A stretch of 63,163 nucleotides of DNA, the filler included, from Sanchytrium tribonematis (Eukaryota): assembly GCA_018985235.1 (NCBI GenBank). It is 9 parts of 9 records of this genome, joined end to end, with 100 filler letters (N's around TTAATTAATTAA, not from the genome) between each part and the next. Parts side by side here need not be neighbours in the genome. Positions count along the whole stretch, not along the records: positions 1 to 6,952 come from JADGIG010000478.1; positions 7,053 to 14,002 come from JADGIG010000479.1; positions 14,103 to 21,040 come from JADGIG010000480.1; positions 21,141 to 28,074 come from JADGIG010000481.1; positions 28,175 to 35,107 come from JADGIG010000482.1; positions 35,208 to 42,137 come from JADGIG010000483.1; positions 42,238 to 49,167 come from JADGIG010000484.1; positions 49,268 to 56,170 come from JADGIG010000485.1; 1 more part is not named here. One strand, 5' to 3'. The stretch's first letter is position 1. The number at the start of each line of letters is the position of its first letter. Under the pieces are notes generated by a model. It saw only the letters and a program-made list of their open reading frames with translations. It made no database searches and was not told the DNA's origin. Shown here in pieces: positions 2,752 through 55,279 of this stretch. Both the position numbers and the translations under genes were made by a program.

Positions 2752-3125
2752 ATGTTGAAAAGATTTGACTCGAGTTTAGGCGAACAAGCTCCTCCTAGTC
2801 TTGAAGCTAGTAAAAGAGAAGTTGTAAAAGCAGCCCATTCGGTAGTTTATATCGGAGATATGGAGGAGGGGTCTGTCAGTCTGGAAAAGGGTTTAATTCC
2901 TCGAGTCTGGGACAGCTATAAACCAACAGTGCAAGATTTAACGAGTCGATGGCTGAAAAAAATGGAGGATATTGGTGGCTATGTTTGTGACACCATTGGA
3001 ATTACCCGGCCCCAGTATGAATACGAAATATCAAACTATTTTGAACAGGAACAAGGTACAAGTTGTTTTATTTAGAAGAGCAACGGAAAATCATTGCGCA
3101 AGACTTAATCAATAAATATGGCTGA
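2752..3125 (+). CDS. FAM177-family small protein; exons 2752-3055 and 3076-3125
   Basis: GITRPQYEYEISNY resembles the FAM177 motif. Splicing the 20-nt intron gives ...EQEQEEQRKIIAQDLINKYG* (117 aa). Confidence 0.55.
3056..3075 (+). other. 20-nt spliceosomal intron (phase 1)
   Basis: GTACAAGTTGTTTTATTTAG; contains the apparent TAG stop; T at -8 and A at -6 as in the other introns. Confidence 0.6.
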
Positions 3126-3179
3126 TTGGCAGAATTGTAATTATTTTAAGTTATAAAGATTTGGAAGATTGATTCGAGA

Positions 3180-3650
3180 ATGCTTTTGCCAGTTTTGCTT
3201 GCTTGTGATTACAAAATGCCTCAGGGATTGTCAGAAGGTCAAGAATTCAACATACAACCAGTTGCAAGTTATCTGCCAAATTCTTCGCAGAAAATAACAG
3301 TTTCAGGGATTTTTATAATTCAGGATGCTTGCACTGTGGTTATAAAAGACCTAGTTTATACACCCCAGATACAGCAAGTTTATCTATATTCTAGCAACAC
3401 GGCTAATATCAATGATTCATCGGCACTAGGTGAACAGATTAGTGCTAAGGAGATCCAACACTCTGCCTTCAAGGGAACAGTACAAAACATCACTCTAACG
3501 AAACCAATCGATAATGCCAAATCTCTGAAGTTGTTTGGAAGCCAGGATAACTTTGTTCTAGCGGGAGCCTCGATCTCTAGTTGTGGTGGCGATTTTTCGA
3601 CTTTGTCCATTGCTTTGGTGACATTATTGCTAGGTGGGAGCTTGCAATAG
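3180..3650 (+). CDS. Small secreted, probably GPI-anchored protein (DM13-like)
   Basis: Short hydrophobic N-terminus MLLPVLLAC, beta-rich core VSGIFIIQDACTVVIKDLVYTP, hydrophobic C-terminus; AATAAA at 3655. Confidence 0.6.
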   Translation: MLLPVLLACDYKMPQGLSEGQEFNIQPVASYLPNSSQKITVSGIFIIQDACTVVIKDLVYTPQIQQVYLYSSNTANINDSSALGEQISAKEIQHSAFKGTVQNITLTKPIDNAKSLKLFGSQDNFVLAGASISSCGGDFSTLSIALVTLLLGGSLQ

Positions 3651-3670
3651 TAACAATAAAATTTATTTCT

Positions 3671-4322
3671 TTAACCACAACAACTTTTTTGCTGACCATC
3701 TTTTGAAGGTGTCAAATTAATAGCATCACCAGCTGAAGGCTTGACTCCATTTCCTCCCTCCAGCTGCTTTTTCGATGCATTGCGATATATTTCTATATAA
3801 GTAAAATATACCAGTGAGAATTTTTTGAAACGCTTGCTCTACGTTAGTAGAGTCTAGTGCACTAGTCTCAATAAACATAGTATTATTATCAGTTGCATAT
3901 TGTTTTGCCTCCTCAGTTGGAACTGCTCTCAAATGACGCAAATCACTTTTGTTTCCGACAAGCATTATAACAATGTTATTGTCGGCATGATCTCGAAGTT
4001 CCTTTAGCCATCTGTTAACATTCTCATAAGTATTATGTTTTGCGATATCATACACCAGTAGGGCGCCCACGGCACCTCGATAATATGCGCTAGTAATAGC
4101 CCTGTATCTTTCTTGACCAGCTGTGTCCCAAATTTGAGCTTTGATGGTTTTACCGTCAACTTGAATACTTCTAGTAGCAAATTCCACTCCAATGGTGGAT
4201 TTACTTTCCATATTAAACTCATTACGGGTAAACCTAGAAAGCAAATTTGACTTTCCTACACCACTATCTCCAATTAACACTACTTTGAATAAATAATCAT
4301 ATTCATCTTCAGCCTTTGACAT
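3671..4322 (-). CDS. RAB11: Rab11/Ypt31 GTPase; exons 4322-3812 and 3792-3671 (210 aa)
   Basis: [36 protein letters not shown]. Removing the 19-nt intron restores ILTEIYR and a C-terminal prenylation motif KSCCG*. Confidence 0.97.
3793..3811 (-). other. 19-nt spliceosomal intron (phase 1) in RAB11
   Basis: GTATATTTTACTTATATAG on the minus strand; required for the CC C-terminus. Confidence 0.95.
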
Positions 4323-4507
4323 TCAAATGTGTTTCAAGATTAACTCCGAAGTACAAGTAATGCCTTGGAAATTACATGTTGAGATTCAAGCAGCAAACAG
4401 GGGATAACAAATTGAGCATTAAACATCTCAGCTTCTAAGTGTCAAAGTTTTAAAAAATTTGCTTTCAAATTTGGTTAGCTCGGAGGATATGATTTTAGTC
4501 TGAAACC

Positions 4508-6952
4508 ATGAAGTTGTTCAAAACACATTTTCTTTCTACGAACGAGGATGAATCAATAGAATTTTATACCAAACTAGGATACAACGTATTAAAATTAAAT
4601 CCGTTGATAGTGCGAAAAGAGGAACATATTATCGAATTTAGTGCGACAAACCCAGGTGTTTGTACTGTTCAAGGCAGCGAAATTGATATTCAGGACCCTG
4701 ACGGAAATCTAATTAAATTCGAGTCAAGTTCTTTATCCAGTATCGAGAAAGAGCTACTTTCCCCATTGCATTCACAGCCCTCTCAAACAAGCCCTCAAAT
4801 TCAAAAAGAATTGTTTAAGAGAAAGCGAATCGCAATTCTTACCAGCGGCGGCGATAGTTGCGGTATGAACGCCAGTGTTAGAGCGGTCATTCGGTCTGCC
4901 TATAATATGCAAATGATACCATATGCAGTTTATGATGGTTACCAGGGCTTAGTTCAAGGAAATCTTAAAAGGCTTGAATGGAGCGATGTTCAAGGATGGC
5001 TTAGTCTAGGTGGAACTGATATCGGTACTGCTAGATGTGCAGAGTTTCGCGAGCGATCCGGTAGGATTGAAGCAGCTTTTAATCTGATTAAAAACGGTAT
5101 CGATGCCTTAGTTATAAATGGAGGTGATGGATCTCTCACTGGAGCTGATATTTTGAGAAGCGAATGGACCTCTATATTGAAGGATCTCGTAGCCATGAAT
5201 CGAATTTCAGTTGATGAGTGTGAAAAATATAACAAGCTCAAAATTGTTGGATTAGTTGGTTCGATTGATAATGATATGTGTCTAACTGACTTTACTATTG
5301 GTTGTGCAAGTGCTCTTCATCGAATTATAGAAAGCATTGATGCAATTCAAACTACGGCAAGCTCTCACCGAAGAGCATTCATTGTAGAGGTGATGGGTAG
5401 ACATTGTGGCTGGTTGGCTCTTATGGCAGCAATAGCAGTTAATGCAGATTGGCTGTTTATTCCTGAACATCCGGTTTTGGATAAAAAATGGGAGGACGCC
5501 ATGGTAGAACATCTCGAGGTTTTAAAAGGAATGAATCACCGAAAACTTATTATTATTGTTAGTGAAGGAGCAATTGATAAAGATTTGAATCCAATTACAT
5601 CATCTGATGTACAGAAGGTTATAAAAGATCGCCTTTTCTATGATTGTCGAGTAACTGTCCTTGGACATGTACAAAGAGGCGGAAATCCTTGTTTCTTTGA
5701 TAGGTACCTCGGCACGGTACAAGGAGTAAAAGCCGTGGAAACCATAAAAAACAATATTTCAGATGAGAGCCCACTTATCGGTATTAAAAATAATGAAATC
5801 ACTGTCGAAAATATGATCGAAGCTGTTGCTACAACAAAGAAAGTAGCTTCTTTTATTGAAAAAAAGGATTTTACGAGTGCGATGAATTTAAGGGACCCTC
5901 AATTTGTTCCAACTTTGAAGAGTTATTTTAAATTAAGCGCACCACGAGTTATTGATGCAAAGGTAAAGGAACAGGGAATCCGGCTTGCATTTATGCATGT
6001 TGGCGCACCTTGTGGCGGTATGAATATAGCCGCTAGTGTATTGGCAAAATACAGTCTTAATAGAGGACATCAACCAGTTGCCATCTACAATGGATTCGAA
6101 GGGCTTTTGAAGGGACAAGTGAAAGACTTACAGTGGACTGATGTCACCAATTGGATAACTAAAGGAGGTTCTTCTCTAGGAACAAATAGGTACCTTCCAT
6201 CTACCTCTGCTGATTTTGGAATTTTGGCTTATCAACTGCACAAATTAAATATTAATGCACTCATGATCATAGGCGGGTTTGAAGCCTTTACAGCCGGTCA
6301 ATTAATATTAAAATATAGAAATCAATATCCTAGCTTCAATATTCCTGTGGCTATTTTACCTGCAACAGTTTCAAATAATGTTCCTGGTACCGATTATAGT
6401 CTCGGTTGCGACACAGCCTTGAACGTTATCATGGAGAGCTGTGACAGAATCAAACAGAGTGCAAGTGCAAGCAGAAAAAGAGTTTTTATTGTGGAAGTTC
6501 AAGGTGGTAACGTTGGCTTTCTGGCAACATTGGGCGCCTTAGCGGGTGGTGCCACAACATCCTATATTGTTGAAGAAGGTATAAATCTTGAAATGATTCA
6601 ACAAGATGTTAGACATTTGACTAGATTATATACCAATGATAAAATCAACGAGGGTAGAGTGATTTTGAGAAACGAAAATGTAAGTAGCACATATAGTACC
6701 GAGACTATTTCCAATATACTTAAAGAGGAAGCCAATGGATGCTTTGACAGTAGAACAGCAATATTGGGTCATTTGCAGCAAGGTGGTTTGCCTTCCCCAC
6801 TCGGTCTTTATTTTTAATTTAGATAGAATCAGAAGTGCTCAACTCGCAACTTTGAGTGTGGAATGGTTTGAAACACATGCAACAAGAAGCGAAAAAGATT
6901 GGATGCCTAAAATATTTAATGACGACCCAGAGACAATTGCAGTTGTGGGTAT
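4508..6952 (+). CDS. PFK: Eukaryotic ATP-dependent 6-phosphofructokinase with fungal-type N-terminal glyoxalase-like extension (3' partial; intron 6804-6822)
   Basis: TSGGDSCGMN, GGDGS, GSIDND, EVMGRHCG, GHVQRGG and a duplicated regulatory half. After splicing: GHLQQGGLPSPLDRIRSAQLA. Confidence 0.96.
6804..6822 (+). other. 19-nt spliceosomal intron (phase 1) in PFK
   Basis: GTCTTTATTTTTAATTTAG; removal restores conserved PSPLDRIR. Confidence 0.95.
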
Positions 6953-9515: not shown

Positions 9516-9518
9516 ATT

Positions 9519-12719: not shown

Positions 12720-13367
12720 ATGGAAAACTCTCTACCTGCTTTGTGCAATTCCTCAGTGCATGATTTTATAATTTCTGAATGGGTCAAAATAGACTCAAAA
12801 CCTTTATTTACTACTCCAGATGTGAGAAAACTGGTTTGTAATATTTCATGTGCTGTTGAAAGCATGATAAATTTAAAACAAGAAATTCAAGGACCAAACT
12901 ATGCTATTGTAGGTGCTAGAGGTTGGCTAATGCAGAATATAAACATATTGCTCAATAGGTATTTCGAGCAAAAAAAATTAAAAGCACGTAGTTTCTACCG
13001 CGACATGTCTGTATCGGAAGAATTACCATTTGATACGATGCAAAAATGGTTGAACACGCAAGGTTCTACATTGGATTACAGTACCTATGATGACTGGTTT
13101 GCTTGGTTCAGAGCTGTACGAGAAGAGGGCTTCAGACTATTTTACTTTGTTGATGAAATTCATAATGTTTACGAGCTGACCGATAAGGAATTTAGCAAGA
13201 TAATCATAAAACAACTTTATGTAATTGGTAAATCGACGTGCTCATTAGGATTTATATCGAGTAGTTCTTACAAGTGGACCAAGTATGCATTCTCTGATAT
13301 TCCAGATTATCCAAATTTTATGAAGTTGCCGGTGCCGACCATAATGGATTGGATGGATTTATTGTAA
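12720..13367 (+). CDS. Degenerate P-loop NTPase-like protein (resembles Crinkler-type NTPase domains); possibly truncated
   Basis: YAIVGARG lacking GKT at the Walker A position; Walker B-like FYFVDEIHNVY; LGFISSSS. Confidence 0.4.
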   Translation: MENSLPALCNSSVHDFIISEWVKIDSKPLFTTPDVRKLVCNISCAVESMINLKQEIQGPNYAIVGARGWLMQNINILLNRYFEQKKLKARSFYRDMSVSEELPFDTMQKWLNTQGSTLDYSTYDDWFAWFRAVREEGFRLFYFVDEIHNVYELTDKEFSKIIIKQLYVIGKSTCSLGFISSSSYKWTKYAFSDIPDYPNFMKLPVPTIMDWMDLL

Positions 13368-13657
13368 GTACTAAAGATAAGATAATCGACATTAGGTGAA
13401 CACATCACGAAATTGACTTGGATTGGTGTGGCATTTCTATTTGGATTAGTCAAATCTACGATTTGATTGGCAAGTCATATCAGTCTAAGTTTATATTTTG
13501 CTTTAAAATAAAAATTTCAAACTAATCAACCTCGAAAGGACTTTTTTGAAGACTTCTTAATTATCATTTAGTGTCCCAAATGCAGTTAAAGTGATTTGGT
13601 ATTTAAACGTTTGCCATTTTTCACTTAATGAACGAAACTTAAATAATTTTTAAAACA

Positions 13658-16389: not shown

Positions 16390-16428
16390 ATCAAAATTGA
16401 CATTTTCTCTCCTCGTTTTATTTCAAAA

Positions 16429-17310
16429 ATGCATCCATTTGGCGACAATGATTTCGTTAAAATGCAAGCACCCATGGTCAGATACTCCAAATTAGCATTC
16501 AGAGAACTCATTAGAGATTATAATGTAGATATTACCACCACCCCAATGATATTAGCCAAAGAATTCCATAGAAATCAAAAAGCAAGAGAAATGGAATTTT
16601 GTACTTCCAAATCAGACCATCCCCTCATCGTCCAATTTGCCAGTCAAAATGCCACTGATTTACGATTAGCCACCCAATTAATCATGAATTATTCAGTTGG
16701 CGTCGATTTAAATTGTGGATGTCCACAATCATGGGCCATCTCAGAAGGTATTGGTGCTTATTTAAGTGGTCAACCAGAATTGGTTGCAGATATGATCAAA
16801 CAATTACAAATGATTTGTCCTTCTACATACTCTAAAAGCATCAAAATCAGATTACACAACAATTTACAAATTACCACTGAATTAATGAAAAGAGCAGAAA
16901 TGATGGGTATTGATTTTATCACAGTCCATGGCCGTACTAGATCTGAAATGACCAAAGTCCCCGTCCGCATTCACGATATGAAAATTTTGAATGAAACCGT
17001 GCAAATCCCCGTTATTGCCAATGGAGATGTATTTTCCCTCCAAGATGCTCAAAATATGATCAAATCTACCCGTTGCAGAGGTGTATCCGTAGCACGTGGA
17101 TTATTAATGAATCCTGAATTATTTACAGGTGCCTCTCAAACCAGTTGGAATTGCATCTACAAATATTTAGATTTAGGTGTCTCGTATGGCACTCATCCAT
17201 TTATTATCTCACATCATTTGAGTTATATGATGGTATTCCGAGTATCATTGATTTTATTGAAGAAAAGAGTGAAGTGTGAATTTATTGAGGTTAATTTCTG
17301 TGTCTTTTAG
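16429..17310 (+). CDS. DUS4: tRNA dihydrouridine synthase Dus4-like; C-terminus apparently frameshifted near 17233
   Basis: QAPMVRYSKLAFR, PLIVQF, DLNCGCPQSWA..EGIGA, SIKIR, TVHGRT, ANGD, ARG. Confidence 0.88.
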   Translation: MHPFGDNDFVKMQAPMVRYSKLAFRELIRDYNVDITTTPMILAKEFHRNQKAREMEFCTSKSDHPLIVQFASQNATDLRLATQLIMNYSVGVDLNCGCPQSWAISEGIGAYLSGQPELVADMIKQLQMICPSTYSKSIKIRLHNNLQITTELMKRAEMMGIDFITVHGRTRSEMTKVPVRIHDMKILNETVQIPVIANGDVFSLQDAQNMIKSTRCRGVSVARGLLMNPELFTGASQTSWNCIYKYLDLGVSYGTHPFIISHHLSYMMVFRVSLILLKKRVKCEFIEVNFCVF

Positions 17311-17720
17311 GACGATGTTGTTTCAATTTGCAGCGTTTAAGTGCATCTCCCCAATAACCATGACACGGGTTAACCGGAATTCCCAAGTTACCACCGTGAC
17401 AATGTTCTTTGTTCTTATCCCAAGTGCCGCCTTCTCTTTCACAATTCTCTTTTGAATTTCCACAATCATGATTGCCAGTTAACATACAATGTGGAATGCA
17501 GTGATTGTCTTTCCATTGGCCTTGTTTTTTCTCACAACTTTCTCTTGTTGGTCGACCACCACCAATTGCAAAAATGCTGATGCTTAATAAAAACAACATG
17601 TACTATTTCGATATCTGCTTCAATTTAAACAAATACGCATGACTTGCATATAATGGCAATCACATCACATTCCAATCAGCAAAATTAAAGTTGATTTGCA
17701 AGGACTTGCTGCAAAATAAT
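17234..17720. repeat. Locally triplicated unit, copy 1 (DUS4 3' end + peptide gene + promoter); other copies ~18705-19170 and ~20329-20706
   Basis: TATTCCGAGTATCATTGATTTTATTGAAGAAAAGAGTGAA at 17234 and 18705; shared signal-peptide DNA; shared upstream TTTGCAAG[G/C]ACTTGCTGCAAAA. Copies 2 and 3 are near-identical over ~190 nt around and upstream of the ATG. Confidence 0.85.
17291..17599 (-). CDS. Secreted Cys-rich peptide, family copy 1 (102 aa, 8 Cys)
   Basis: Signal MLFLLSISIFA; paralogous to 18756-18986 and 20342-20548. Confidence 0.85.
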   Translation of the reverse strand: MLFLLSISIFAIGGGRPTRESCEKKQGQWKDNHCIPHCMLTGNHDCGNSKENCEREGGTWDKNKEHCHGGNLGIPVNPCHGYWGDALKRCKLKQHRPKRHRN

Positions 17721-17786
17721 TTAACAAATATTTTTAAGACGACGACATCCATCTATTAAACATTGTTTCATAATAAACTAGGCCAA

Positions 17787-18722: not shown

Positions 18723-18755
18723 TTTTATTGAAGAAAAGAGTGAAATGTAAGTAAT

Positions 18756-18986: not shown

Positions 18987-19330
18987 GTACGATGTGGTTC
19001 CATCTTGGTATTTATTTATTAATTAATAATGCAAGGCTTGCATCGACCAGTAATGCGCATCACATAATTTGCAAGCACTTGCTGCAAAACAGTTTGAAAT
19101 GGATTTTCAAATCAATATTTTTTGATCCGAATGTCCACAACTTTATTCTAAGGCGTGCTCTGTTATGTATTGTGAAATGGAAATGAACCCGTACAAAAAA
19201 AGATTTTCAATAAAATATTTCAATGAGTTGATTGGTTCAAAATATGCCATTTTAGAAGATTCTAATGTTTGATCCAGTAAATTGGCGACATTTCAATTTA
19301 TAAACCCTGGTGTCACTTTCTTGTTCACAA

Positions 19331-26697: not shown

Positions 26698-26710
26698 AAA
26701 AAATAAATAA

Positions 26711-28174: not shown

Positions 28175-30533
28175 CCTGACGATTCAAACGCTTGGTATGC
28201 ACACTTTACTTATTTTTATGCAATATCTTTCTCTCTTTATTTTTTTATATTCAAAGTCAACTCTATGTTCATTGATTTTCGACAAAAACATTTGATGTTG
28301 TCAGCAAAACGAAATTATGTAAATTCCAGGAGTATTTTGGTTCAAGGCATTCCGCATGCGATGAGATCTGGTCCTTACCTCAATCAATTTTTCAACAGTA
28401 TCAACATTGGTGAAGTTGATCAAGTCATAGTATTTAGAAACTTTAGCTCCTTACTGAAAATTATAAAGCGCAGGTACAACGCGATCGTCGCTTTAGAGCG
28501 ACTGTATGAAGATTGGCTAAAAATTTCTTTAAAGAAGACAACCGGCCAAGATTTGCAAAGAATGATGAGTAGTACTTCCTTAGAACTAAATAATGTCAGT
28601 AATTCTAGATCCTCGTTGATCGCTCCAAAATTGCCGTTAAGAAAGTCAAGCTCGCCATCTATTTTGCCTACAGATGGATATGATATCAAGCAGTTCTCTC
28701 CTCATGCCTTTCCTATTGCAGGACACACTCCGTTGCCAAATTCCACGTATAAGAATCTTCCTGGTCACTGGAGACCACGAAAGTGGAAGAAAACTCCTTT
28801 GCCTAATATGTTTGCGCCTTTATACTGGGTTATTTTTCACATTGTCAAAAAAATTGGCGGAAGTAATCATTCCTTTCCAGATGCTTATAAAAAGGACGCC
28901 ATCGACCATTATTTTGAAAAATTTAAAAAGTATGATCTCCAAGTATCTCAAGTGCGCAGTTGGTATTCAAAAAATATAGATCTTTTTGATGAAGAATACT
29001 CCAACAATTTTAGACAAGATCTTGCTAACTTTACAACGGAGTCTACTAAACAATTCTTGATGGAGCAATACTTAGAATTTAAGAAATTATCGAAAAAGTT
29101 TTTAGAATTGGCCAAAATCGACAAGCTTCAAAATGCAATCAGCGTTGGCGATATTGATCAACAAAGGTCTGATCTTCAAGATATAGTGGACATCGACGAT
29201 TTTGAACCTACTTCTAGTGCTATTGTTACTTTTAGATCCACCGTCAGTGCCCAAGTTGCTTCTCAGATTTTGATGCATCGAGTTCCTATAGTTTTGAAGT
29301 GCACTCTCGCCCCATCTTATACTGATCTTTACTATTCTAACCTATCATATCCTCCTATTGTTAACTATATAAGGTATGCTGCAGTTTTAGCTGGCATATT
29401 GGCTTTGATTATTTCATGGAATGTCGTCATGGGAGCCATTACGACTTTATTTCTAAATGAAAAAACGCTGACATTCTTATTTCCTTCTGAGTCAGTAAGA
29501 GAATTTATGCAATCGGTCATACCGCCTCTTATTCTTAATATTAGCGTTAGTTTTTTACCAATGCTATTTACTATGACAGCAAAATTTCAAGGACTCATAA
29601 GTTGGTCATCAATCGAGCATGATGTCATATCAAAATATTTTACTTTTTTAGTTGTAAATGTTTTAATCTGTAGTTTTTACTTATATAGTGTATCAGACTT
29701 TTACTTTTGGCACTAATTTAATCGTCCAATTTCTTTATGATCAAAATATTGGAGATCTGACGGAAAAGTTGAGAAAGGTTCTTCAAGGCATGGCACCTTT
29801 CATGGTGTCTTATGTGTTTCTACAAGCTGTCCTCCAAGTTCCTCTGGATATTTCCAGATTACAGATTATTGGTTTATCAAGGCTAACCAGGATATTTTCA
29901 AAAACTCCAAGGGAACAGGCCGTCAATTTTAAAACTGCTCCGGCAATCGATTATGGTGCCTTAGTGCCAGTTCCTTTATTTATTTTTTTATTGTCCATTG
30001 TTTATAGTGTATTGGAGCCGATGATGATGCCAATCTGTGCATTTTATTTTTTAGTGCAAAGAATATGTAGAAAGTATTGCTTTTTATTTATTTACGAACG
30101 CAGATACGAGACAGGAGGACAAATGATTGTTAGCAATGTCACAAACTTTACTTTTGTTGCTTTGGTACTTTACCACATCACATCCATCGCCTATTTGGGA
30201 ATCAAGAATAGATTTTTACTATCTGGGCTACTGATACCTCTTTTGATAATTGACGCCATACTCATTTACTATGCAAATACAATCTTGAAAGAAAGAATGC
30301 AGTTTTTACCAGGTTCTTTAATTAGTGAGAATTCTGTAGGGTCACCAGAATTTCAAGAGCCACAGCCTGAAGTTGACATATCTAACGCACAAGCTTATGG
30401 CGATGAGGAGCGGATGGTATTTGGTGACTATAGCCATGTGCTGCCACAACACCACCCAGATATTGATCGCGAATATCAGCATCCAGCTATTTCTGGAAAA
30501 CTGAGCAAAGTTTGGTTTAAAACAGAATTTTAA
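28175..30533 (+). CDS. OSCA/TMEM63 (CSC1/RSN1) calcium-permeable channel (5' partial; intron 29670-29688)
   Basis: WYAHF, SRSILVQGIP, SAIVTF..AQ, LAP..D..YSNL, KYFTFLVVNV, KTPRE, IVYSVLEP, KY..LFIY..YETGG; two track ORFs joined by a 19-nt intron. Confidence 0.9.
29670..29688 (+). other. 19-nt spliceosomal intron (phase 1) in the OSCA/TMEM63 gene
   Basis: GTAGTTTTTACTTATATAG; joins the two frames (VNVLIL-YQTFTFG). Confidence 0.88.
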
Positions 30534-36878: not shown

Positions 36879-37512
36879 TCAAACGCAAATTCTATAAGTA
36901 ACATATCTACCAGCGGTTTCGGATGGTCTCGTAATTTTCACTACTTGCCCTCTGATCAAACCGTAATAGCGAGAAACAGGATCGTTGTGTTGTATCCTGG
37001 GCAATTGGGTCTCCTTAAGCTTACTAGATTAATTTAAAATACTATCTGTCTAATAATTTTTGCTTATCCTGGTCATCCAGTAGTTCATGTTTCGGCACCA
37101 AAACATGCTTGGTGATATTTACGATTAATTCGCTCTCTAAAAATACCTCGAGCAAATACTTAGATCCCATTTGCTGAAGAACTTTTTTAGCACTGGGAGT
37201 CATTGGTTTTTTAACGACAATGATTCCTCGTTCTATATTGTGTTGAATCATTTTCTCACAATACTGACGAATGTGTTTAACTCCTACACTTTCCTCTTCA
37301 GCGTAAATAACGTATATTTGGACATTTGGTTGATTTCTTTTTGCTGCGATTAAGTTTAATTCCGCCTTATTTACAACTCCATTAATGACGAACTTTTTGG
37401 AGAACTCTTCAAAGGACATATCAATTTCAGACTTGCTGAGATTATATCCCCTATCTTTAAGCATTTCAATGATTGTTTTTTGAATTCTAAATTGTCGTAC
37501 TATATCGGACAT
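36879..37512 (-). CDS. RPB5: RNA polymerase I/II/III common subunit RPB5; exons 37512-37043 and 37023-36879 (204 aa)
   Basis: [20 protein letters not shown]; after splicing [51 protein letters not shown]. Confidence 0.97.
37024..37042 (-). other. 19-nt spliceosomal intron (phase 2) in RPB5
   Basis: GTATTTTAAATTAATCTAG; removal restores the essential conserved C-terminal domain. Confidence 0.96.
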
Positions 37513-42237: not shown

Positions 42238-45200
42238 GCCGCCATGCTCCATACCATTTTTCATTAATTGCCGAGCGTGTACTTCTTGACCTTGCCCCAT
42301 AGAAATGATGTTCATTGGAACTTTTGATTGTTTGCTCAAATTCTCTAAATCGCTGGTAGGATCAGATCCCTGACTCAGAAGCGCGATCATTGGTGTTTTA
42401 TTGTTAGACTCCATCAATAACTCAGATAGGTTTAGAATGAGAGGCTGCGTAAATACTTCTCCAAGTGTACTTTGAATATATTTCCTTGCCATGCCCAATA
42501 CTTTGTCAATGCAGAAACATCTAATGAAAAGCATATGATGAAATGGTTTCAATTCTAAATTTGGAAGCGAGATAGTTTCTGGCTGATCATTTTCGTACCA
42601 CGCTTTCCATTGCTTTTCATTATGCTCTATATTCTCCAAAATTTCATGAAATTGTGGCAAAACCTGGATAGCGGTCAAGTTCAGCCAAATTGTATCAGAT
42701 ATCCAACTAAAAGGTTTTTTGGCGGTAGATTGACTTAATGCGCCTGCCCTTATAAACAAATTGAATTCATCCATGGTAATTTTTCCCAAATTCAAATCGA
42801 TTTTGAGACTTAGCAACAAAGTAAACATCAATTTGTGTTTTTCGTACAAACCTCTGGTAAAATACGAGTAAACCTTGTAAGTTAGATATTCCAAAATGTT
42901 TTCTATTCTCTTGTTTGTCATAATATCGGGTTGGCTTTTCTCCATGCTATAGTCAAATAATTGTAAAAATTGTTTTAAACTTGTTTGATACATATTGCAA
43001 ACATTAGCAAAGTCACTCAACAAAAAGTACAAAATACTGCCTCGAACTGCAATAACTCTGTACTCATCTCTAGCATGAGTTATCTTTTTATTGGTTTCAG
43101 CAGCAACAACCAGCTTGTCATTGACCTCGACACTTGTTTTTTTAGTATTTTCCAAGACTAAAACCAAGGATTCATCTTCAACTAAACTACCTTGAGTTGA
43201 GCTTAGTCTTTGTAATAAATTATCTTCTAATTCTTTGATTTTCTTTTTGTTGCTACTAATTTCTTCTAAAAGCTTTACTCTTTCAATTTCCAATTCCTTC
43301 TTTTCTCTTAAAATTACTCTGCCCAATAATTGTTCCTCCAGACCACGCTGGGTTACCGTAAAGTCGATAACACTGGTCTTAGCGAAGATTTCGGGTGTGT
43401 AATTTGGATTGGGTAGTTTAGTCGTCATATATAATTTAAATCCATTAGTGAAATCAAGATCTTTGTCTCCAAACATAACTTTGAAATTTTTACCACTTTT
43501 CAACAAATTTCGCTCCAAAATATTGTCCAAAGTAGGATCAACGAATTCTTCTACGTCCTCAATTAATAATGGCCTGCCACTATTCACAGCGTCCTCTACA
43601 TGGTTTCTGAAATACTTGTTGGCAAAATTTGTAACAATCAAAGATTTACCTTCCTTTTTAGCAATCCAGCTTCTTGCTTGAGATTGAGGATCTATTATCA
43701 GAGGATATCTACTTCCCATTGTTGTAATAATTCCATTTTGAACAGACAATTCATCGTTAGGAAGTCCTTGTAATTGCCATTCGTCCAAGACTATATTTTC
43801 GACCATGAAACTAGTCAAATGAAAATCGTTTGAAAATGGAATCTTATTTTCGAGCAATCTTGTTTTCCAATTTTGCATCATTTTGAATCTAAATTCAAAA
43901 TTAAACGGACCGCAATAGCTTAAAAAGGCGCTCGCTAAAATTACATCCCCAACGAGCTGACCCATTAAATTTTGTAACTCTTTTGCAGTATTTGTCCATC
44001 TTTCTTTCTCTCCTTGAAGCCCATTGATTAGCGCAGTGGCAATTTTCATTTTTTTCCTGCAGCTATCTGCTATATCTTGTAAGTTTTGCTTTTGAGTGAT
44101 AGCATCGTCATACTTCTTCTTTAGTTTATTTAGTTCCATTTCTTTTTCATCCAATTGAGATTGTGCAATTCCAAGATCATTCATTGCAATATTGTACTTG
44201 TGCTCTTGTACAATCAAATTACTTTTTAAGGGAATAACTTTCTTATTAATTTTATAATAAGTACACATGGCTCTGACCCAACAAGCCAGGCCAGCGACAT
44301 CAGCGCTTACCTTTTTTGCACCTTCCATGGTAAAGTCTGCCATTTCAATATAAGGCTCAACCAGTTCCACTGTTTCTTCGGTCATTTCATCTTTTGGAAA
44401 TTTTAATAAACTTCCCAGAAAATCAGGCGTACTAAGAAGTTTTAGAGACTCAGCCCAACTTGGTTTGACGCATGGCCGTTCAGGATCTTGTGTTACACCA
44501 TCTATTTTCTTTTGTTGCAAAATTAGAACACCATCCATAATTCTCATAATTAAATGGGGTGGCTTAGCTAATTTTCTAACCGCTGAAATATGACTAGGCT
44601 GAATACTATTTAATGCATTTGCTGCTTCCTCTAACGCAGGCTGAGCTGCTTCTAATTCAGCCTCGGCAATTTGTTTATCTTTGCTAATTGCATCTGCTAT
44701 AGACTGACAATTGATTTTTACCTTGAACACTTCATCTTTGACAATTTGTGCTTGTGATGTACTGGTCGTAACTTCCTCTAGTACTAAGTCAGCTTCCTTG
44801 CTCGCCACTAATAATTCCTTATCTTTTATAAGTAACTCGCTTTGTAAAACTGATACTGCTACACTAGCTTCATTCAATTTGTTTAGTCCAGTATTCATTC
44901 TGTCAGCCATAAGCCCTACAGTGGAATATTTTAATGCGTACATTTGAATAAATGAGTTGATGAAAGATAAATAAGATTTTGGAGTTAAGAAGACTCGCCT
45001 CCTGAACTGATTTAAATAAACATCACACTGTATTTGACAATCAGTGTGTATCCATGCGATTAGTTGAATGGCCTTTAATTTGACTTCATCCGAACATTGT
45101 AATTGACTGCTTTGTAAATATTTTTCACTAACTGCAATTAGAGCTTCCTGAGGCCATTTATTGAACCAGTCCAAAGTACAGCCACTTATCAATCCAGGAT

Positions 45201-48200
45201 ATTTGAGAGATCTTTGCCTCAATTGATCACCGACAGGGCTAAAGCATAAAATTACGTGCAAATTCTTTTTTACCCTGTTCATGAAGTAGCCAAATAGTGC
45301 TTCATTAGAGTCTGTTGCTTGAGGAAACTCCTTCCGCATAGGTGTTCTCATGTCGTTACAGATTTGCAAAACCTCATCTTTCAAGAACAAATTTGGAATT
45401 TCGCCACTTGTCAGAATATTATTTATAATTCCAAGAAATGATTCATCTTTGATATCGTTATCCGTAAATATGAATGTGGCACTATTGTTGTTTCCACAAT
45501 ATTTGTAAATCAACTTTAAATCTTCTAAAAATGCATTAATATTATAGTTTTTGGTCATTTGCAATTGAAATATTTTAGACTGACAAATAAATGCACTTAA
45601 TTTTGTGAGTGACTGTTTTCCACTTCCTCCAACACCAACTAAAACCATGGATCCTTTTGGTGTCTGTAATTGTCTACAAATCCTGATAATATGATAAATT
45701 GCATCATCAAATAAAACTAGATCTAATTTTCCACTTTTGACTGATTCATTGTATTGAGTTTGATAATTTAATAGTTTAGATCGCAATAAGTCGATTTCGT
45801 ATACTGGCTCATAATATTTGTAATTGGTAATTTCAGGGTCCTCCGGCGGATCTCTCATGAAGTCACAGAATACACTTGGTTGCAAATGTTGCTGCGTTTT
45901 GGAAGGTACATTCATGACACTTGATATTGTATTATTAAACCAACCCAAATCCTTCTCGTTGACCAATCTATCACTAAGTACTCTATGGCACTCGTGGTCA
46001 AGTAAAAGGTTAAATTCATTTACAGTTTTAATTGACGTGCTTTTTACTTGAATCATACCTTGAATAATTCTACTTAAATCTCTAAGGTTAAAAATGTAAT
46101 GAAATTTATCAGGCGTAGGCAACATTTTATCCTTGGTAGCTTGCCAAATATTTCTAATTGTCTGAATTGACTGAGAGGAAATAGACTGAATCTCTTGAGT
46201 AAATCCCCTATTATTGAAGTATCCGCTTAATAGTTGGCCAAATATCTTGTCTATACTCTTATTGCTGGGTAAAGTGCAATTTAAAATGCAAAATTGTCGC
46301 TTCAATCTATTTGGAATATCATTCCTACCTCCACCAGGATGCATCATAGCTGCCAAATATTTCACATCCACAATTGATGTCCATTCGCCAGGTCTATCTA
46401 AAGAATACATTCCTCCATTTTCCATTAGTTGACGTAATATTTCAGCAGTTGGTTGATCACCCCAATTGTTTATTTCTGGCATATTAACATCATCAATAAA
46501 TAAGTTTAATTGTTTACCACTAGGCGGTCCATAAGTGCTTCCCAATCTTTTCTCTACTATGCTTTCAATAGTTCGTTGGAAAACATTTGGAGTCGTTGCA
46601 CTGCTGAATGCCACTACTTTATTCATTTGATTTGTAGATTGAATATATTTTGAGATTGTAACCGTTTTGGCACTTCCAGGCTCCCCAATAAGCATCACTG
46701 GTTGATGGTCCATTAACTTTTGTATAAGATATTGAGTTTTAATATTATCAATATTAGGAATAAATAGATCGCTAAAATCGAAGGCACCTGCAGGGAATTC
46801 CCAGTTTGGGACCAAATTTGACCACTCTTGCCATTCATGATTTTGAAGAAAATAATCACCCAAAGAAGCTGGGCTTGTTGGATCTGATTTCTTTGGTAGA
46901 TCGAGCCAAGTAAATTCATTTCTGATAAATTGATATAATAACTCTCGTTCCTGAAGCTCCAAGAGACTTCCAAATGACCACATGATTGAAAATGCATAAG
47001 ACCGATTAACACTTAAAGCATCTACTTTGTCCAATAATATCGCATCCATCATTTTACTGGTAAACTGAAAATAAGACACATCAGGGATTTGCATCCTAGG
47101 ATGTAGCTCCTTTAGATATGAAAGAAGTTGAGAAAATGACTTTGTAAAGCAATCTTCGATGGCGCCCGAGGCGGAGGATCTTTTGGTATTTCGCAACAAC
47201 CAACTTCGCATTACCTGTTGCCATGTGAGTGTATTTTCTCCAACATAAATCATTCCACATCTACTGACTGTAGCTGGAGAAGCATTTCTCAAAGAATCCA
47301 CCTCAAAAACAAGCTTTGCAGTGTTGGACATGATCAATCGATCTCCATTTGCCAACGTAAGAGTCTTGTTGTCGTCCAGCACAGAATTCAGATTTTCAAT
47401 CCATACAGCATCCACGGGGCCATCCAATATGATCCATATGTTTTCTCCCTTTCTTTTTAAGGTTTTACGCCACAAGGCACTGAAAATACCATCAGTCCAA
47501 TCATTTGTTGAAACGTCAAGCTTGCCAAACATTTGGAAGTCCAAAATAGATTTGGGATTCATTCTAACATCCTTATGTGGATTATTTAATATTGTAAATG
47601 CATTAAGCAATGTTTGGATAATTTTTGTTTTACCACTACCTGTTGGGCCAAGCATCATTATTCCGTGTCTAACTTTTTGCGTCTCATATAATTGAATGCA
47701 TTTTAAATTGAATTCGTCTGATCCAGTCAGCTGAAGATCCAGCAAGGTCTTTTGTATAGCGGCCTCAATTTCAGGATAGCTACCTTTAGGTGAGGTAATG
47801 GATGGAAATAAATCAGTAATAAGTCCGCTGAAGATCTGTTCGTCTTCATCTACAAGTTTTGACATATTCATATCTCTAAGTACTCTCATCATAATCATAT
47901 CTTCACTGTCTAGAGGATTTGATCTCTTAACGCTTCCACAAGTACGCAAAACACTTAAAATATTTCGAAGACCAAAATCGTAATGAACCTGCTTGCTCAA
48001 TTGCTCTTCGCATAATTTATAGAGTACAAAAAACTTTCTAGCAAGTGCATTATTATTGATGAAACCGCAACCCGCTAATTTTACTTTAATAATAATTTGA
48101 CGATCCGGAACCATCATTGCAACGTATCTAAAGTAAACTTTGAGATTTTCAGGCAATTCTACCCTGCCGGCGTAGCCAGGATTCATTGTGATAAAAAATC

Positions 48201-49167
48201 CAACTTCTGGATTCAACTCAATTTGTTCGCCATCTGTAAAAGTAAATATAGATTTTTTCTCTTTCTTGGCGTTCAGCACTGAGGCAATTTGTTGCGCGGC
48301 GACACTTAAAACAGGTAGCTCAATTCTGTTAAACTCGTCAAAGCATCCCCAACAACCGCTTTGTGCTAATCCTTTATATATTCTTCCGAGTCCTCGATAA
48401 TCCATTTGATCTGAACAATTAAAAACGACAACCCACTTTCCTAAAGCTTTGCCCATATCTTTTGTTGTTTCTGTTTTACCGGTACCAGCTGGTCCTGCTG
48501 GAGATCCACCCAAATTGAGTCCCATTGCTTGAGCTAGAGTACAGTAACATCTGTCAGTCAAGGGCGTGATGACCAGTCTATCTGTACAGCCTAGATATTC
48601 ACACTGATATTGAAAGTCAAAGTTTGTTATACTAACAACACATTTGTCTTCATCCTCTCTGTAGTAAAATCTGGACTGCTTTAGCCATTCAAAGTCATCA
48701 ATTCCTTTGATATTCATCTTAAAAAGATCCTCAGATACGTCTCGGTGATGAACTTGAATAGTAATAAGAGTCTCATATTTAATTCTGTCCATTTTGTTAA
48801 GTTCTTTAGTAGTTTGACCAATCAAAGTATTTAAGACCGCAGTGATCTTGCCAAGTGCCAATTGCTGAGATTTTTTGTCTTTGCTCAATATTGCCTCTTC
48901 CATTATGCTGGTCCAACTTATTTGAAGACAAAGCAAACCAATTTGAGCGGGGTATTTTTCAATTATTTGAAAAAGGTCCACGTCTTGCATCTCAGAAACT
49001 GCTTGTTTGATCACATATTGCACAGTTTTCCGGACGGTATCCAAAAGAGTTCCCAGCCAGATTTCCACGTTACCTGTGGCGGTAAACGACTTGTAAAATG
49101 GTACAGTTTCGCCTTCCATACTTTCCATGCCAATGATCTTATCATATTCTTTTGAGTCAAACTGCAC
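42238..49167 (-). CDS. Axonemal outer-arm dynein heavy chain (DNAH5/8, gamma-type); internal fragment, no frame-breaking intron
   Basis: AAA1 GPAGTGKTET, AAA2 GPTGSGKT with FGKLDVSTNDWTDGIFSALWRK, AAA3 GEPGSAKT, AAA4 GVGGSGKQSL, stalk, AAA5; ORF spans the whole contig. Confidence 0.93.
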
Positions 49168-50644: not shown

Positions 50645-52429
50645 TTACTTGGTCAAGTCCAATTTGGAATCAAGTCTCTCGCTTAACTCTCCATCGACCT
50701 TGTAATTTAAGAATGGTGCAAATACTGCCTCACTCCCCAAGGTAAAATCATTGTGAACTGCAGTCAACAAGCTGTATTCGTTTAACACATTCATCAATAA
50801 CTCACGACTTTTGCTACCGGAGTCGTATAAATTGGCCCATTCTTTCCATAATTCGTAAGCCTCACTCTTCCATGCAATCAATGCTTCTTTCTGCATAATT
50901 GTTGGTTGCATGACTTCTTTTCCAGGAAACACACCCCAAGTTAACGCAATTGGCTCATCATCTGCATGATTTGTTGAGATGTCGCCTTGTTTGTTAATCA
51001 AATAATAAGTGATCTGATCAGAATTAAAAGATTTCACTAGATCTAATTGACTATTATGCACAAAACATTCCACATATGCTCTCTGATAAACATAGCCATT
51101 GGAAGGACCCCAACCGTGAACAGAATCACTGGATTTTAAACCATTAACACTCGGCTGAGAATTAATTGTCAAAAATCCACGATTGTTCATTTGACCCAAT
51201 AAATCACTGATTTTTGAGGATTCTGCACTCCATTGATCACACCAAGGAAGCATTGTAATCTCTCTATTACAAAATTTCATAAAAACTTGAATCAAATCAC
51301 TTGTAGATGTTGGATATCCCCACATTTCAAGTGCTTGACCGCGTTCTACTTTCAATTGACATCCATAACCATCCAATTCACCAAAAGCACAACTATCCGC
51401 ATTACCCCATCGTCCATTGGGAAATTCATCCCATTCTTTAGTGCGTTGTAAATACGATTCTGTTCTGTTGCTCCAATAAACGGGTCTGCAATATTCGCTG
51501 ACTCTAGATTCATGTAATGATTTTGGCCATGGAAGTGGCTTTACTTGATCATACAGAGGCACGAGATGCAATTCATTTAAAATACATTTAGTAGAAGTCT
51601 CCAAATTGAGAGTATAAAAATGAAAATTCGAAATATCATACTGCATAATCTCTTTGCACATTTGAACAGCCAACTTGATACCATATTCTTTTACCAATTG
51701 ATCATCTTCCTTAATTGGCTCCAAAGATTCCATGATTTCTTTAGGCACATGAGTTTTACAAAGTGAAGTCATTCTCATGAATCCTTTATAGGACTGGATT
51801 GGCATGATACCTGGTAAAATTGGGATATTGATATCTAGATCGCGACAATCTTTGACAAACTTCAAAAACAAATGCGTGTCATAAAATAATTGAGTCACAA
51901 TATAATCTGCTCCAGCTTCTACTTTTTCTTTCAAATATTTCAAGTCAGTCTGCATATCGACAGCATCCGAATGCATTTCTGGATATCCTGCAACGCCAAT
52001 ACAAAAGTAATCTCCATAATTCTTTCTCATATATTTAACAAGATCAACAGCATGGTTAAATTTGTGATCTGACGAAAAATAATCTGCGTTAAACTTTGGT
52101 GGATCGCCTCGCAATGCCAAAATATTACGCATGCCCATTCGCTGGCATGTGTCCAAAGTATCTTTTAAAATTTGCTCCTCCAAGTTGGTGCAGGTCACAT
52201 GTAAACAGGTTTCCATTCCCAATACATTATACATATACTCGGCGATTTCCAAGGATAGCTCGCAAGTAGATCCAGAAGCACCCCACGTGATGTCACTAAA
52301 TGTGGGTCCTAATAATTGCATATTTGAAAGCCGCTTAAATAGATTATATTTTCCAGGGAGCGTCTTGGGAGGAAAGTATTCAAATGACCAGTTGAGTGAT
52401 TTTTGTTCCAATTTCTTTGTAATTTTCAT
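50645..52429 (-). CDS. MET13: Methylenetetrahydrofolate reductase (eukaryotic, with C-terminal regulatory domain)
   Basis: SFEYFPPKT, HVTCTN, ILALRGDPP, VAGYPE.H, TQLFYD, HFYTLN, WDEFPNGRWG, TINSQP, TWGVFPGKE. Confidence 0.95.
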   Translation of the reverse strand: MKITKKLEQKSLNWSFEYFPPKTLPGKYNLFKRLSNMQLLGPTFSDITWGASGSTCELSLEIAEYMYNVLGMETCLHVTCTNLEEQILKDTLDTCQRMGMRNILALRGDPPKFNADYFSSDHKFNHAVDLVKYMRKNYGDYFCIGVAGYPEMHSDAVDMQTDLKYLKEKVEAGADYIVTQLFYDTHLFLKFVKDCRDLDINIPILPGIMPIQSYKGFMRMTSLCKTHVPKEIMESLEPIKEDDQLVKEYGIKLAVQMCKEIMQYDISNFHFYTLNLETSTKCILNELHLVPLYDQVKPLPWPKSLHESRVSEYCRPVYWSNRTESYLQRTKEWDEFPNGRWGNADSCAFGELDGYGCQLKVERGQALEMWGYPTSTSDLIQVFMKFCNREITMLPWCDQWSAESSKISDLLGQMNNRGFLTINSQPSVNGLKSSDSVHGWGPSNGYVYQRAYVECFVHNSQLDLVKSFNSDQITYYLINKQGDISTNHADDEPIALTWGVFPGKEVMQPTIMQKEALIAWKSEAYELWKEWANLYDSGSKSRELLMNVLNEYSLLTAVHNDFTLGSEAVFAPFLNYKVDGELSERLDSKLDLTK

Positions 52430-53243
52430 TAATTAGCAAATGTTTGAGAATGGGGACGGATTTCAAACATATCGCGCGAATGGTTCCCATCAGAAGCAAG
52501 GAGTTTCTTATTGGTTATTAATTAATTTGGTAAAACACCAAGCGGATGCAAAGGTTACGCGTAAAAATGAGAAAAGGTAGTGGTAAAAATTGTCAATTTT
52601 GTGGAACGGTATAAATTAAATTTATGTAAAATTACCTATGCAATAAAACTCAAAATTTTCGGATATCATATAGGCATGCAAGGTCTATCCTCCTATACAC
52701 GTATGACGCGAAACATTTCCTTATAATTGTTTAAAAAGTCATGTTGTGTCTCAGAGTCTTCTAGTTGAGGCCATGGTAGGTGATTTTTAGGATTTGATTG
52801 GTTAAATGTTAGCCAGTTAAATAAAAACTAAAATACCAAATTATCTTTCAATTTATTAAATTTCCAAGAAATTCATTTTTGTGAGTATGTTAGGTAAAAA
52901 ATATTTGGGAGTTTGCAGATTGAAATTTTCAAACGTATTCTCTGTATAGATTTCGGCCAAATACGATTTTCTTTTTTCGATTTCATATACGAAGTAAATC
53001 AATTAAACTATATACTCTTATGTGTAAAAATTCCTTTATCTAAATTCGACGTTGCAACAAAGGAGTGCCATCTTGATTTAAATGCCTCAGTATATTTTCG
53101 ACATCCCATGGCTAGATCCGCACTATTAAAAAGGATTTAAATGGCATACGAAAGAATCTGAAACGAGATACCAATGTGACTATGACGTCAACACAAAAAC
53201 GACGTTTTGGTCACTTTATAAAGAAACAACCTGATTATCACAA

Positions 53244-54331
53244 ATGAAACTAGTGACTTTCATTTCCATACTTTATATCGGATTCAGTATTATTTTCACT
53301 ACCATATGGACTGGAATCTGGATTTTATATCCAGGTAATTTAAATCTGTCATCTGAAATAGAAGCTCGCAAATTATTTACACCCATGCTTCCGACTACTA
53401 TATCCCCAAACTACTACAAAGGAACAGAAATTTCTGGAATATCAATTGCTACCATGATTACTTTGGAGAGATTACCGAGGCTGAAAATCTTAGTTGAAAA
53501 TTACAAAGGACCAATTAGCTGTGTTTTGCACATTGAAAATGAAGAACAATTAACAGAATTACATAAAATGTCATTTACTCAACAAGAATTATCCAGATTA
53601 TATCTTCATGTCATCATGGACAATTTTGATCGACAATTTAATTTGTGGCGGAATGTAGCCAAGTTCTATGCCCCATCAGATGTCATTTTGATGCTAGACA
53701 TTGATTTTTATTTACCAAATGTCAACGAAATGATGCATTCTGTAGATTTCAAGGCAGTGGCTGAAGGTAATTTAATATTAATTTAGGAAATTTGGTTTAT
53801 GTCGTTCCTGCATTTGAATATTCTAATCAACATAAGCAAACTCTTTATCCCGACTTTCCAAAATCCAAGCAGGATCTATTATTAGAACTAACCAAAGGCA
53901 CGATTGAAATGTTTCATAAAAAATGGGACAGAGGCCACAAACCAACCAATTATTCAAAATGGTACCATGCGACAGAACCATATCCGATTTCTGACTACAC
54001 TTATAATTATGAGCCATATTTAATTATGGGTAAAAATACCCCTTATTGCGATGAAAGATTTGTAGGTTATGGCAGTAACAAGGCTGCTTGTATTTATCAT
54101 TTGTATTTACATGGATTGGATTTTCAAGTTCATCCTCACTTATTTTTAATTCACCAATATCATCCTTATCCTGAAGCGGATCGGAGTAAAGAAAGAGAAT
54201 ACAATAGATTGTTATATGAACAATACAGGCTGGAAATGTGTATTAAATACATGCGAATGAAAGAAAAGACTACGAAATTGGACAATTTGAAAGGATATAT
54301 GAAACAATGTAGTAATTTACAATGGATATAA
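53244..54331 (+). CDS. GT49 (LARGE-like) glycosyltransferase, type II membrane; exons 53244-53766 and 53787-54331
   Basis: N-terminal TM, QFNLWRNVAK, MLDIDF (DxD), VYVVPAFE, YEPY..PYCDERFVGYGSNK. Confidence 0.85.
53767..53786 (+). other. 20-nt spliceosomal intron (phase 1) in the GT49 gene
   Basis: GTAATTTAATATTAATTTAG; joins two track ORFs into AEGNLVYVVPAFE. Confidence 0.9.
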
Positions 54332-54424
54332 TTCTGACGCATTTTTTAATAAAAGAATGTTTAAAATAACTAAACGATATAAAATTTGTAGCAAGTACAC
54401 TGGGGCAGCATCCTAAAATGCAAA

Positions 54425-54497
54425 AGGGTCCGATGGGATTTGAACCCACAATCTTCTGATTCGTAGTCAGACGATATAACCATTAATCCACGGACCC
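54425..54497 (-). tRNA. tRNA-Arg, anticodon ACG, intronless
   Basis: Acceptor GGGTCCG/CGGACCC, anticodon arm TCTGA-CTACGAA-TCAGA, T-arm GTGGG-TTCAAAT-CCCAT, followed by a T-run. Confidence 0.93.
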
Positions 54498-54753
54498 CGC
54501 TACTTAGAGCCTCATTTTTGACTTATATAATCTTTTCAGCAATGTTCAGTTCACTTCAGAGATACTTGATTGTTTTTAAAAAAGTAATTCTAATTTTGTT
54601 GATGAAGTCTTGATTTTTAAGTGCATAGTATTATTTGTAAACAAGTAAGTAAAGCACCGATTTTGTGCATGATTTGATTCTTTTTCGGTAAATATGGGAA
54701 CTGAGGTAATTTCTCTCAAGTTTGGAACCAGAATTTTCAAAACATTCAACTCC

Positions 54754-55279
54754 ATGTCCAGTCCAAGAAGAAGGATTGAAAGTGATGTTATGAAATTATT
54801 AATGAGCGAAAGTGAAGTATCGTTAGTGAACGACAATATGCAAGAATTTTATGTGAATTTTAAAGGACCAGAAGGAACACCATTTGAAAATGGCGTTTGG
54901 AAAATTCATGTTGAGTTGCCAGATGCTTATCCGTACAAGAGTCCGTCCATAGGATTTGTCAATAAGATTTTTCATCCTAATATGTATATTTTATTAACGA
55001 AGAGACGAAATGAGTGGAAGTGTTTGTCTAGATGTCATCAATCAAACTTGGTCGCCAATGTTTGATTTGATTAACATATTTAGCGTATTTTTACCACAAC
55101 TCTTACGATATCCTAATCCTACTGATCCTTTAAATGGAGAAGCGGCTGCCTTACTTATGAGGGACCCAAATGGTTACGAATCTAAAGTAAAAGAATATGT
55201 ACAACGTTATGCATTAATAACAAACGAAGAGGAAGAAGAAGACATAGAGCTAAGTGATGATCTGGATATGGATCTGTAA
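54754..55279 (+). CDS. UBC8: Ubiquitin-conjugating enzyme Ubc8/UBE2H; exons 54754-54983 and 55003-55279
   Basis: [25 protein letters not shown]; after splicing [26 protein letters not shown] (active-site Cys); acidic tail. Confidence 0.96.
54984..55002 (+). other. 19-nt spliceosomal intron (phase 2) in UBC8
   Basis: GTATATTTTATTAACGAAG; TTAAC branch-like motif; restores HPNID..SGSVCL. Confidence 0.96.

Follow-up and report, generated by a model that had tools for sequence, protein, structure and literature searches.

Seven segments of 19 or 20 nt interrupt protein-coding genes of Sanchytrium tribonematis, a zoosporic fungus of the sanchytrid lineage. With a probability of about 0.87 they are U2-type spliceosomal introns, which would have shrunk to about the shortest length able to accommodate a GT(A) donor, an AG acceptor, and a branch site between them. 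The window, meaning the whole stretch of 63,163 nt that was analyzed, consists of nine contigs of ~6.9 kb joined by N/linker spacers, and all intron claims are drawn from these nine contigs. At the level of sequence, the segments have GT..AG ends, restore the reading frame upon removal, and contain an adenosine in a context that can pair with U2 small nuclear RNA (snRNA). A sequence-only reading of this DNA had already proposed them as ultra-short spliceosomal introns of a zoosporic fungal lineage. All seven were found again with the same positions and lengths, spread over four contigs, and that assignment still appears the most likely one.

The window is gene-dense, uses the standard code, and contains ~49 gene spans covering 48,982 bp. 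Its GC content is 34.3% (spacer Ns counted), in line with the ~35% of compact sanchytrid genomes; the published values are 34.64% for S. tribonematis and 36.27% for Amoeboradix gromovi (PMC8371127, Table 1). The window RPB2 has two close relatives at 91% and 89% identity, while the next ones are at ~55%, and an RPB2 profile search of protein representatives gave only distant matches. In a quick RPB2 tree (39 rows, without Blastocladiomycota) the window and its two relatives form a 3-row clade with an SH-aLRT support of 100 and a stem of 1.44, placed loosely among zoosporic fungi. A. gromovi proteins from EukProt are 89% (RPB2) and 94% (Rab11) identical to those of the window, and the GT49 homologue is also from A. 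gromovi. The window genes thus belong to the sanchytrid long-branch clade, and their nearest named relative is A. gromovi, an algal parasite.

Gene context of the seven segments

The segments and their exons, with strand, intron phase, and putative branch adenosine, are as follows.

3793..3811, strand -: putative RAB11 intron, 19 nt, phase 1, after coding sequence (CDS) nt 511; exons 4322-3812 and 3792-3671; putative branch A 3798
37024..37042, strand -: putative RPB5 intron, 19 nt, phase 2; exons 37512-37043 and 37023-36879; putative branch A 37029
54984..55002, strand +: putative UBC8 intron, 19 nt, phase 2, AAG end; exons 54754-54983 and 55003-55279; putative branch A 54997
53767..53786, strand +: putative GT49 glycosyltransferase intron, 20 nt, phase 1; exons 53244-53766 and 53787-54331; putative branch A 53781
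6804..6822, strand +: putative PFK intron, 19 nt, phase 1; exon 1 4508-6803, exon 2 from 6823 past the contig end; putative branch A 6817
29670..29688, strand +: putative OSCA/TMEM63 intron, 19 nt, phase 1; exon 1 28175 (contig start)-29669, exon 2 29689-30533; putative branch A 29683
3056..3075, strand +: FAM177-like candidate intron, 20 nt, phase 1, the weakest of the seven; exons 2752-3055 and 3076-3125; putative branch A 3070

As the earlier reading had claimed, removal of the segments (five of 19 nt and two of 20 nt) restores conserved proteins. Restoration is exact in RPB5, UBC8, RAB11, and GT49, good in PFK and OSCA, and weak in FAM177. Spliced RAB11 aligns without gaps to Rab11 of Catenaria, Allomyces, and Gonapodya, and the junctions of spliced RAB11, UBC8, and GT49 are likewise gap-free against relatives. 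In RPB5 the unspliced frame meets an immediate stop at TAG. Compared with homologues in the Protein Data Bank (PDB), RPB5 exon 1 ends at chain residue 162 and exon 2 starts at residue 164, with only the split codon (163) between them, therefore no space is left for a translated insert. Pfam domains are cut at the segments in four genes: Rpb5_C (positions 1-26 and 28-73), UQ_con (9-76 and 77-139), RSN1_7TM (3-115 and 117-273), and Glyco_transf_49 (112-143 and 167-328). In RPB5, UBC8, and OSCA the profile resumes at the next position across the segment. The unspliced PFK open reading frame (ORF) spans profile positions 1-661 of 744, and a homologue has D at the restored residue; exon 2 queried alone gave no PFK match.

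Removal or bypass by other means is very improbable. Lengths of 19 and 20 nt equal shifts of +1 and +2, as ribosomal frameshifting or hopping could exploit, but homologues have no space for six extra residues in RPB5, UBC8, and RAB11. Splicing by Ire1 and tRNA ligase is known for hac1 introns of ~20 nt in fungi, so far the single known case at this length (PMC4488935), yet its CNG-CNG motif, normally placed in twin hairpin loops, was found at 0/14 junctions and the segments folded no better than shuffled sequences (z -1.0 to +1.7). The GT..AG ends with a branch-like A also speak against any non-spliceosomal route.

Similarly, it is scarcely credible that the inserts are artefacts of assembly or whole-genome amplification, or lesions of pseudogenes. 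Published sanchytrid genomes are assemblies of amplified single cells (PMC8371127), and the window does contain other broken sequence, namely a degenerate retroelement and, in addition, a Dus gene that ends in a shifted frame. However, all seven inserts share GT..AG ends and a common internal motif, and other genomes carry different inserts at the same Rab11 codon, an observation which by itself largely refutes this explanation. RPB5 is an essential gene, which counts against a pseudogene. Contigs from DNA run X1, at a depth of 50-124, span the five sites examined, those of RAB11, UBC8, GT49, PFK, and FAM177, without gaps (5/5); X1 may be the source of the window itself, so these contigs rule out an assembly slip only. 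The same contigs differ from window positions 55129-56093 at 18 positions, with two alternative contigs around 55478-55579, which suggests heterozygosity or mixed strains.

All seven putative introns are in phase 1 or 2 and none in phase 0, and they lie at 0.46-0.95 of the coding length (the PFK and OSCA genes being cut by contig ends). This placement contrasts with the 5' intron bias of intron-poor yeasts and microsporidia, in a small sample in which 5'-terminal introns are harder to detect. The claim that longer introns are absent held as well: none was seen in the ~49 gene spans by Pfam continuity, motif scan, and inspection, with in-frame introns in genes without fetched homologues screened by motif alone. 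No in-frame insert of 18 or 21 nt was seen in the window RPB2 against its two relatives. The density of ~0.14 introns per kb of coding span corresponds to one gene in seven and, scaled to an 11-Mb genome, would give roughly 1,200 introns. An origin by tandem duplication of neighboring exon sequence was unsupported in 7/7 (p 0.11-0.98).

Internal motif and orthologous sites

When the segments are aligned at their 3' ends, 7/7 have A at -6, preceded by T at -8 and followed by a pyrimidine at -5. Among 200,000 shuffles of the intron interiors, 0.015% had a T.A pair of invariant columns and 0.45% had at least one invariant A column. Pairing with the GUAGUA branch-binding motif of U2, taken from PMC9505925, was best with A-6 as the bulged base: a mean of 5.0 of 6 pairs with a bulged A in 7/7, compared with 2.0-4.3 in six slid registers. 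With a self-trained weight matrix, six of the seven introns rank first among 13,708 GT/GC..AG candidates of 15-40 nt. The T-8/A-6 pattern was spotted post hoc on the same seven introns, therefore the inserts of relatives are its real test.

The scan also returned one additional candidate.

56486..56504, strand -: extra 19-nt candidate, AAG/GTAG..TTAATTTAG, ~105 nt past the stop codon of ORF 57729-56611; matrix score 10.2, rank 8 of 13,708

This candidate could be an intron of an untranslated region. Five other signals were rejected. The 21-nt motif matches at 18970-18990 and 17583-17603 include start codons of paralogous genes for small secreted peptides, 52419-52436 is antisense over the MTHFR start, and 22840-22862 is coding sequence of the degenerate retroelement. 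An apparent second frame at 13300-13400 was rejected as a sign of an intron.

Proteins called without splicing translate into introns, and in this way the introns of relatives are revealed. The A. gromovi Rab11 (P0403) has exactly 7 extra residues at the intron codon of the window, in the same phase. Back-translation gives a 21-nt phase-1 insert whose end is forced to ACN-AAY-YTA-G, that is, A at -6 and a TAG end; as far as back-translation fixes it, this end is similar to a near-canonical fungal branch site. Rab11 of four more relatives (P0407 and P0521-P0523) departs at the same codon. P0522 returns to the shifted (+1) frame 19 nt later, and P0521 is compatible with an intron of 20 nt that has T-8 and A-6, provided that its stop is the terminal TAG; in P0523 and P0407 a stop lies inside the site.

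Examination of 122 Rab11 entries, 117 of which matched the test pattern, yielded 10 with G at the site: the five sanchytrid-type entries, two other fungi, and three animals. One of these five other fungal and animal entries returns to EIYR after the retained stretch. The occurrence of G in such read-through entries from both fungi and animals points to an ancestral spliceosomal position of opisthokonts. Introns of human RAB11A and POLR2E presumably lie at the same codons as those of window RAB11 and RPB5.

An insert is missing from the GT49 homologue of A. gromovi and from P0005, the UBC8 relative, so two of the seven introns are without orthologous support. A metagenome scan with UBC8 P0005 gave 80 loci with HPN[IV]D uninterrupted in 80/80. 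None of these exceeds 85% identity, so there is no sanchytrid DNA among them. Three loci (L072, L073, and L078) have a 48-51-nt intron, 9 nt downstream of the window's site. The UBC8 and GT49 introns may have been gained or have slid in the lineage of the window; alternatively, other lineages may have lost them.

Together with these two missing inserts, several further results weigh against the spliceosomal interpretation. The sample for the motif statistics is small (seven introns on nine contigs), and the donor shows little beyond GT(A), with A at +3 in 5/7. The motif fit of FAM177 is poor (3 of 6 U2 pairs, leave-one-out score -2.2) and UBC8 scores low (2.7). The unspliced FAM177 ORF terminates on the segment's own TAG, the segment is not pinned by homology, and the family label is a lead only (Atlas score 0.87). 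In OSCA, an alternative donor 3 nt inside the segment (29673) would give a 16-nt intron. The bare motif without an ORF condition is weakly enriched, with 16 occurrences at 19 nt vs 7-9 for four control dinucleotide pairs, but 17 at 14 nt. The protein tails of relatives fix just the first insert base (G), not GT, and the lengths for P0521-P0523 are inferred. Finally, an Rfam search revealed no snRNA genes in the window.

Splicing machinery, proteome annotation, and other window features

In the proposed mechanism, in which splicing, branch point, and assembly order are inferred, the stretch from -11 to -5 of the intron (consensus TAYTWAY) would pair with U2 snRNA, leaving the A at -6 bulged. 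This adenosine would attack the GT donor and generate a lariat loop of 14-15 nt (16 nt where the insert is 21 nt long). Exactly 5 nt past the branch A, the AG would then be used, with no polypyrimidine tract and no scanning. Given this fixed tail, the 3' end would be measured from the branch point, and the length variation of 1-2 nt would be located between donor and branch site. In a 19-nt intron the gap between donor hexamer and branch helix is ~2 nt, which would make simultaneous binding of U1 and U2 sterically hard. The two probably engage sequentially, in an altered arrangement, or via trimmed factors.

The published annotation of A. gromovi lists U1-70K, the U2AF small subunit, BBP, SF3B1, and Prp8, and U1-70K is annotated for S. 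tribonematis too. Further A. gromovi annotation ids are present which we take to be those of the U2AF large subunit and Prp40. The ids which we take to be Brr2, Slu7, and Prp18 have no row in the searchable portion of this annotation. Given the core splicing factors that are annotated, there is as yet no support for a strongly reduced spliceosome, nor so far for the 'miniaturised splicing system' that had been suggested from the window.

Two genes of the window are possibly related to splicing. At 37591-38358 (strand -) a short FF-domain protein is Prp40/Urn1-like, as a lead only. At 57870-59870 (strand +) lies a DEAH helicase which is nearest to DHX8/Prp22 among solved structures and is without the long N-terminus.

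A related question is whether the introns are real and cut by a strongly reduced, caliper-like spliceosome which gauges total length instead of a branch signal. This has been proposed for chlorarachniophyte nucleomorphs (PMC6009652); Mikrocytos, where no U1 was found (PMC10245619), is another precedent. For the sanchytrid introns this is unlikely. It would be in keeping with the narrow 19-21 nt range, the weak donor, and perhaps the missing rows presumed to be Brr2, Slu7, and Prp18. However, T-8 and A-6 are invariant and U2 pairing is best at one register, in contrast to nucleomorph-type introns with no internal motif beyond GT-AG. Moreover, the orthologous Rab11 site differs in length and yet keeps its 3' geometry, and the factors annotated in A. 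gromovi also argue against such a machinery. Splicing would thus not be purely 'length-defined', as the earlier reading had described it: a branch-like T-x-A signal exists at -8/-6 and the Rab11 site varies from 19 to 21 nt.

Returning to a U2-type spliceosome, a broader proposal can be made tentatively, at somewhat less than even odds. Sanchytriomycota as a whole would splice only 19-21-nt introns and would do so with a fungal spliceosome that is mostly intact. The phylum would be acquiring new introns of this kind even now (UBC8, GT49), and its ancestral ones would be shrinking (Rab11). In published proteomes ~1,000 introns would be missed and ~1 gene in 7 would be split or truncated. If true, sanchytrid introns would be the shortest typical ones among opisthokonts and would require assembly in too little space for U1 and U2 to sit next to each other, and part of the gene loss reported for the phylum would be an annotation artefact.

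It had been anticipated that gene calling misses these introns, and public data bear this out. ORFs were called by TransDecoder on genomic contigs without splicing (PMC8371127). Nine of the ten window ORFs looked up are present in EukProt, and eight of them are, letter for letter, unspliced or split pieces covering all seven genes; RPB5, UBC8, RAB11, and PFK are truncated, and GT49 and OSCA are split. As the public sanchytrid proteomes were called unspliced, phylogenomic and gene-loss analyses which use them need re-annotation. Sanchytrid-like proteins (P0122, P0005, P0407, and P0521-P0523) are also present in several environmental assemblies, which indicates that further genomes of the lineage exist in public data and are usable for intron-length mapping.

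An axonemal outer-arm dynein heavy chain is encoded at 42238-49167 (strand -) as an uninterrupted stretch of 2,310 aa with DNAH5 as best match. Sanchytrids are said to lack axonemal dyneins in PMC8371127, although the A. gromovi table of that paper includes axonemal heavy chains and DNAL1. The presence of the dynein possibly reflects a motile stage or an incomplete loss inventory.

The remaining features of the window are as follows.

16390-17310, strand +: Dus gene with a frame switch near its end, where a short stretch is seemingly lost; not an intron
18705-18784: duplicate (90%) of the last ~80 bp of Dus, 1.5 kb downstream
17294-17602, 18759-19022, and 20345-20584, strand -: three paralogous small Cys-rich secreted-peptide genes, alternating with leucine-rich repeat (LRR) genes
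17760-18719 and 19304-20260, strand +: LRR genes, the frame of one interrupted by a lone in-frame TGA (20006-20008)
21141-28074: contig with few genes, carrying a DDE_Tnp_4 transposase remnant and pieces (zinc knuckle, RT, and RNase H) of a degenerate Ty3-like retroelement; its frameshifts are without the intron motif
54425-54497, strand -: tRNA gene between GT49 and UBC8, the sole Rfam match in the window

The Dus lesion could be a local rearrangement or an amplification chimera.

Comparison with known ultra-short introns

No reports of sanchytrid nuclear introns were found in the literature searched, which covered neither subscription papers nor part of the PMC8371127 supplement, where introns may be mentioned. 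In the accessible text of PMC8371127 and PMC10459994, the word 'intron' occurs in a reference title only. Tiny introns are known as a kind; what appears to be unreported is their occurrence in this lineage, such a length within Fungi, and the effect on the proteomes. At 19-20 nt these introns appear to be shorter than any fungal spliceosomal intron found reported, the shortest found on the fungal side being 22 nt in Encephalitozoon. Rozella introns are ~30 nt (PMC6349667). The earlier reading had named ciliates and nucleomorphs as precedents; both are known, and its list was incomplete, as Mikrocytos, myxobolids, and Encephalitozoon also qualify.

Stentor coeruleus and other heterotrich ciliates have 15-16-nt introns with a 5-nt tail after the branch A (PMC9505925). 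Like those of sanchytrids, where the branch A is putative, they are GU..AG and AU-rich with the branch A at -6; most of the core spliceosome is retained, as also seems likely for sanchytrids. Unlike them, the sanchytrid introns are 19-21 nt, with a putative lariat loop of 14-16 nt, a more fungal-like YTNAY motif, and probably an independent origin inside Fungi. In Mikrocytos mackini and Paramikrocytos, introns of 16-17 nt are found (PMC10245619). Here the parasitic life, the few introns, the very narrow lengths, and the conserved intron sequence are shared, whereas Mikrocytos is a rhizarian in which only 17-19 spliceosomal proteins and U2, U4, and U6 were identified; in A. gromovi, U1-70K, U2AF, and BBP are all annotated. 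Introns of chlorarachniophyte nucleomorphs (18-21 nt; PMC6009652) are of the same length range, AT-rich, and GT-AG. They were described without a motif beyond the ends, number ~3 per gene, and are spliced at >80% efficiency. The sanchytrid introns, in a main nucleus, instead share a fixed putative branch motif and number ~1 per 7 genes.

Closer relatives offer further parallels. Introns of Encephalitozoon cuniculi, also a holomycotan parasite, are 22-76 nt with a TAAY-type branch motif near the AG (PMC3629993, PMC2483917). They are longer, variable, very few, and poorly spliced, at <20% efficiency, with U1 snRNA not identified, while those of the sanchytrid are shorter, tighter, and in the 3' half of genes. 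Fused branch point-AG introns occur in Yarrowia lipolytica (PMC2483917), a fungus in which the branch A similarly lies 6 nt from the end without a polypyrimidine tract; unlike sanchytrid introns, these are long with strong consensus sequences. In myxobolids and dicyemids, ultra-short introns have medians of 22-27 nt (22 nt in myxobolids; PMC13644364). These are opisthokont parasites as well, with the donor reduced to GTa and ancestral positions kept; however, they are animals with slightly longer introns, and their putative branch A shifts with length, whereas the sanchytrid A stays at -6.

Sanchytrids would therefore provide an independent origin of sub-22-nt spliceosomal introns within true Fungi, where splicing mechanics are best known, and the placement of the putative branch A at -6 would be a convergence with Stentor. 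Direct comparison of sanchytrid factors with yeast structures could address how a spliceosome copes with a 14-nt lariat loop and what determines the lower limit of intron length.

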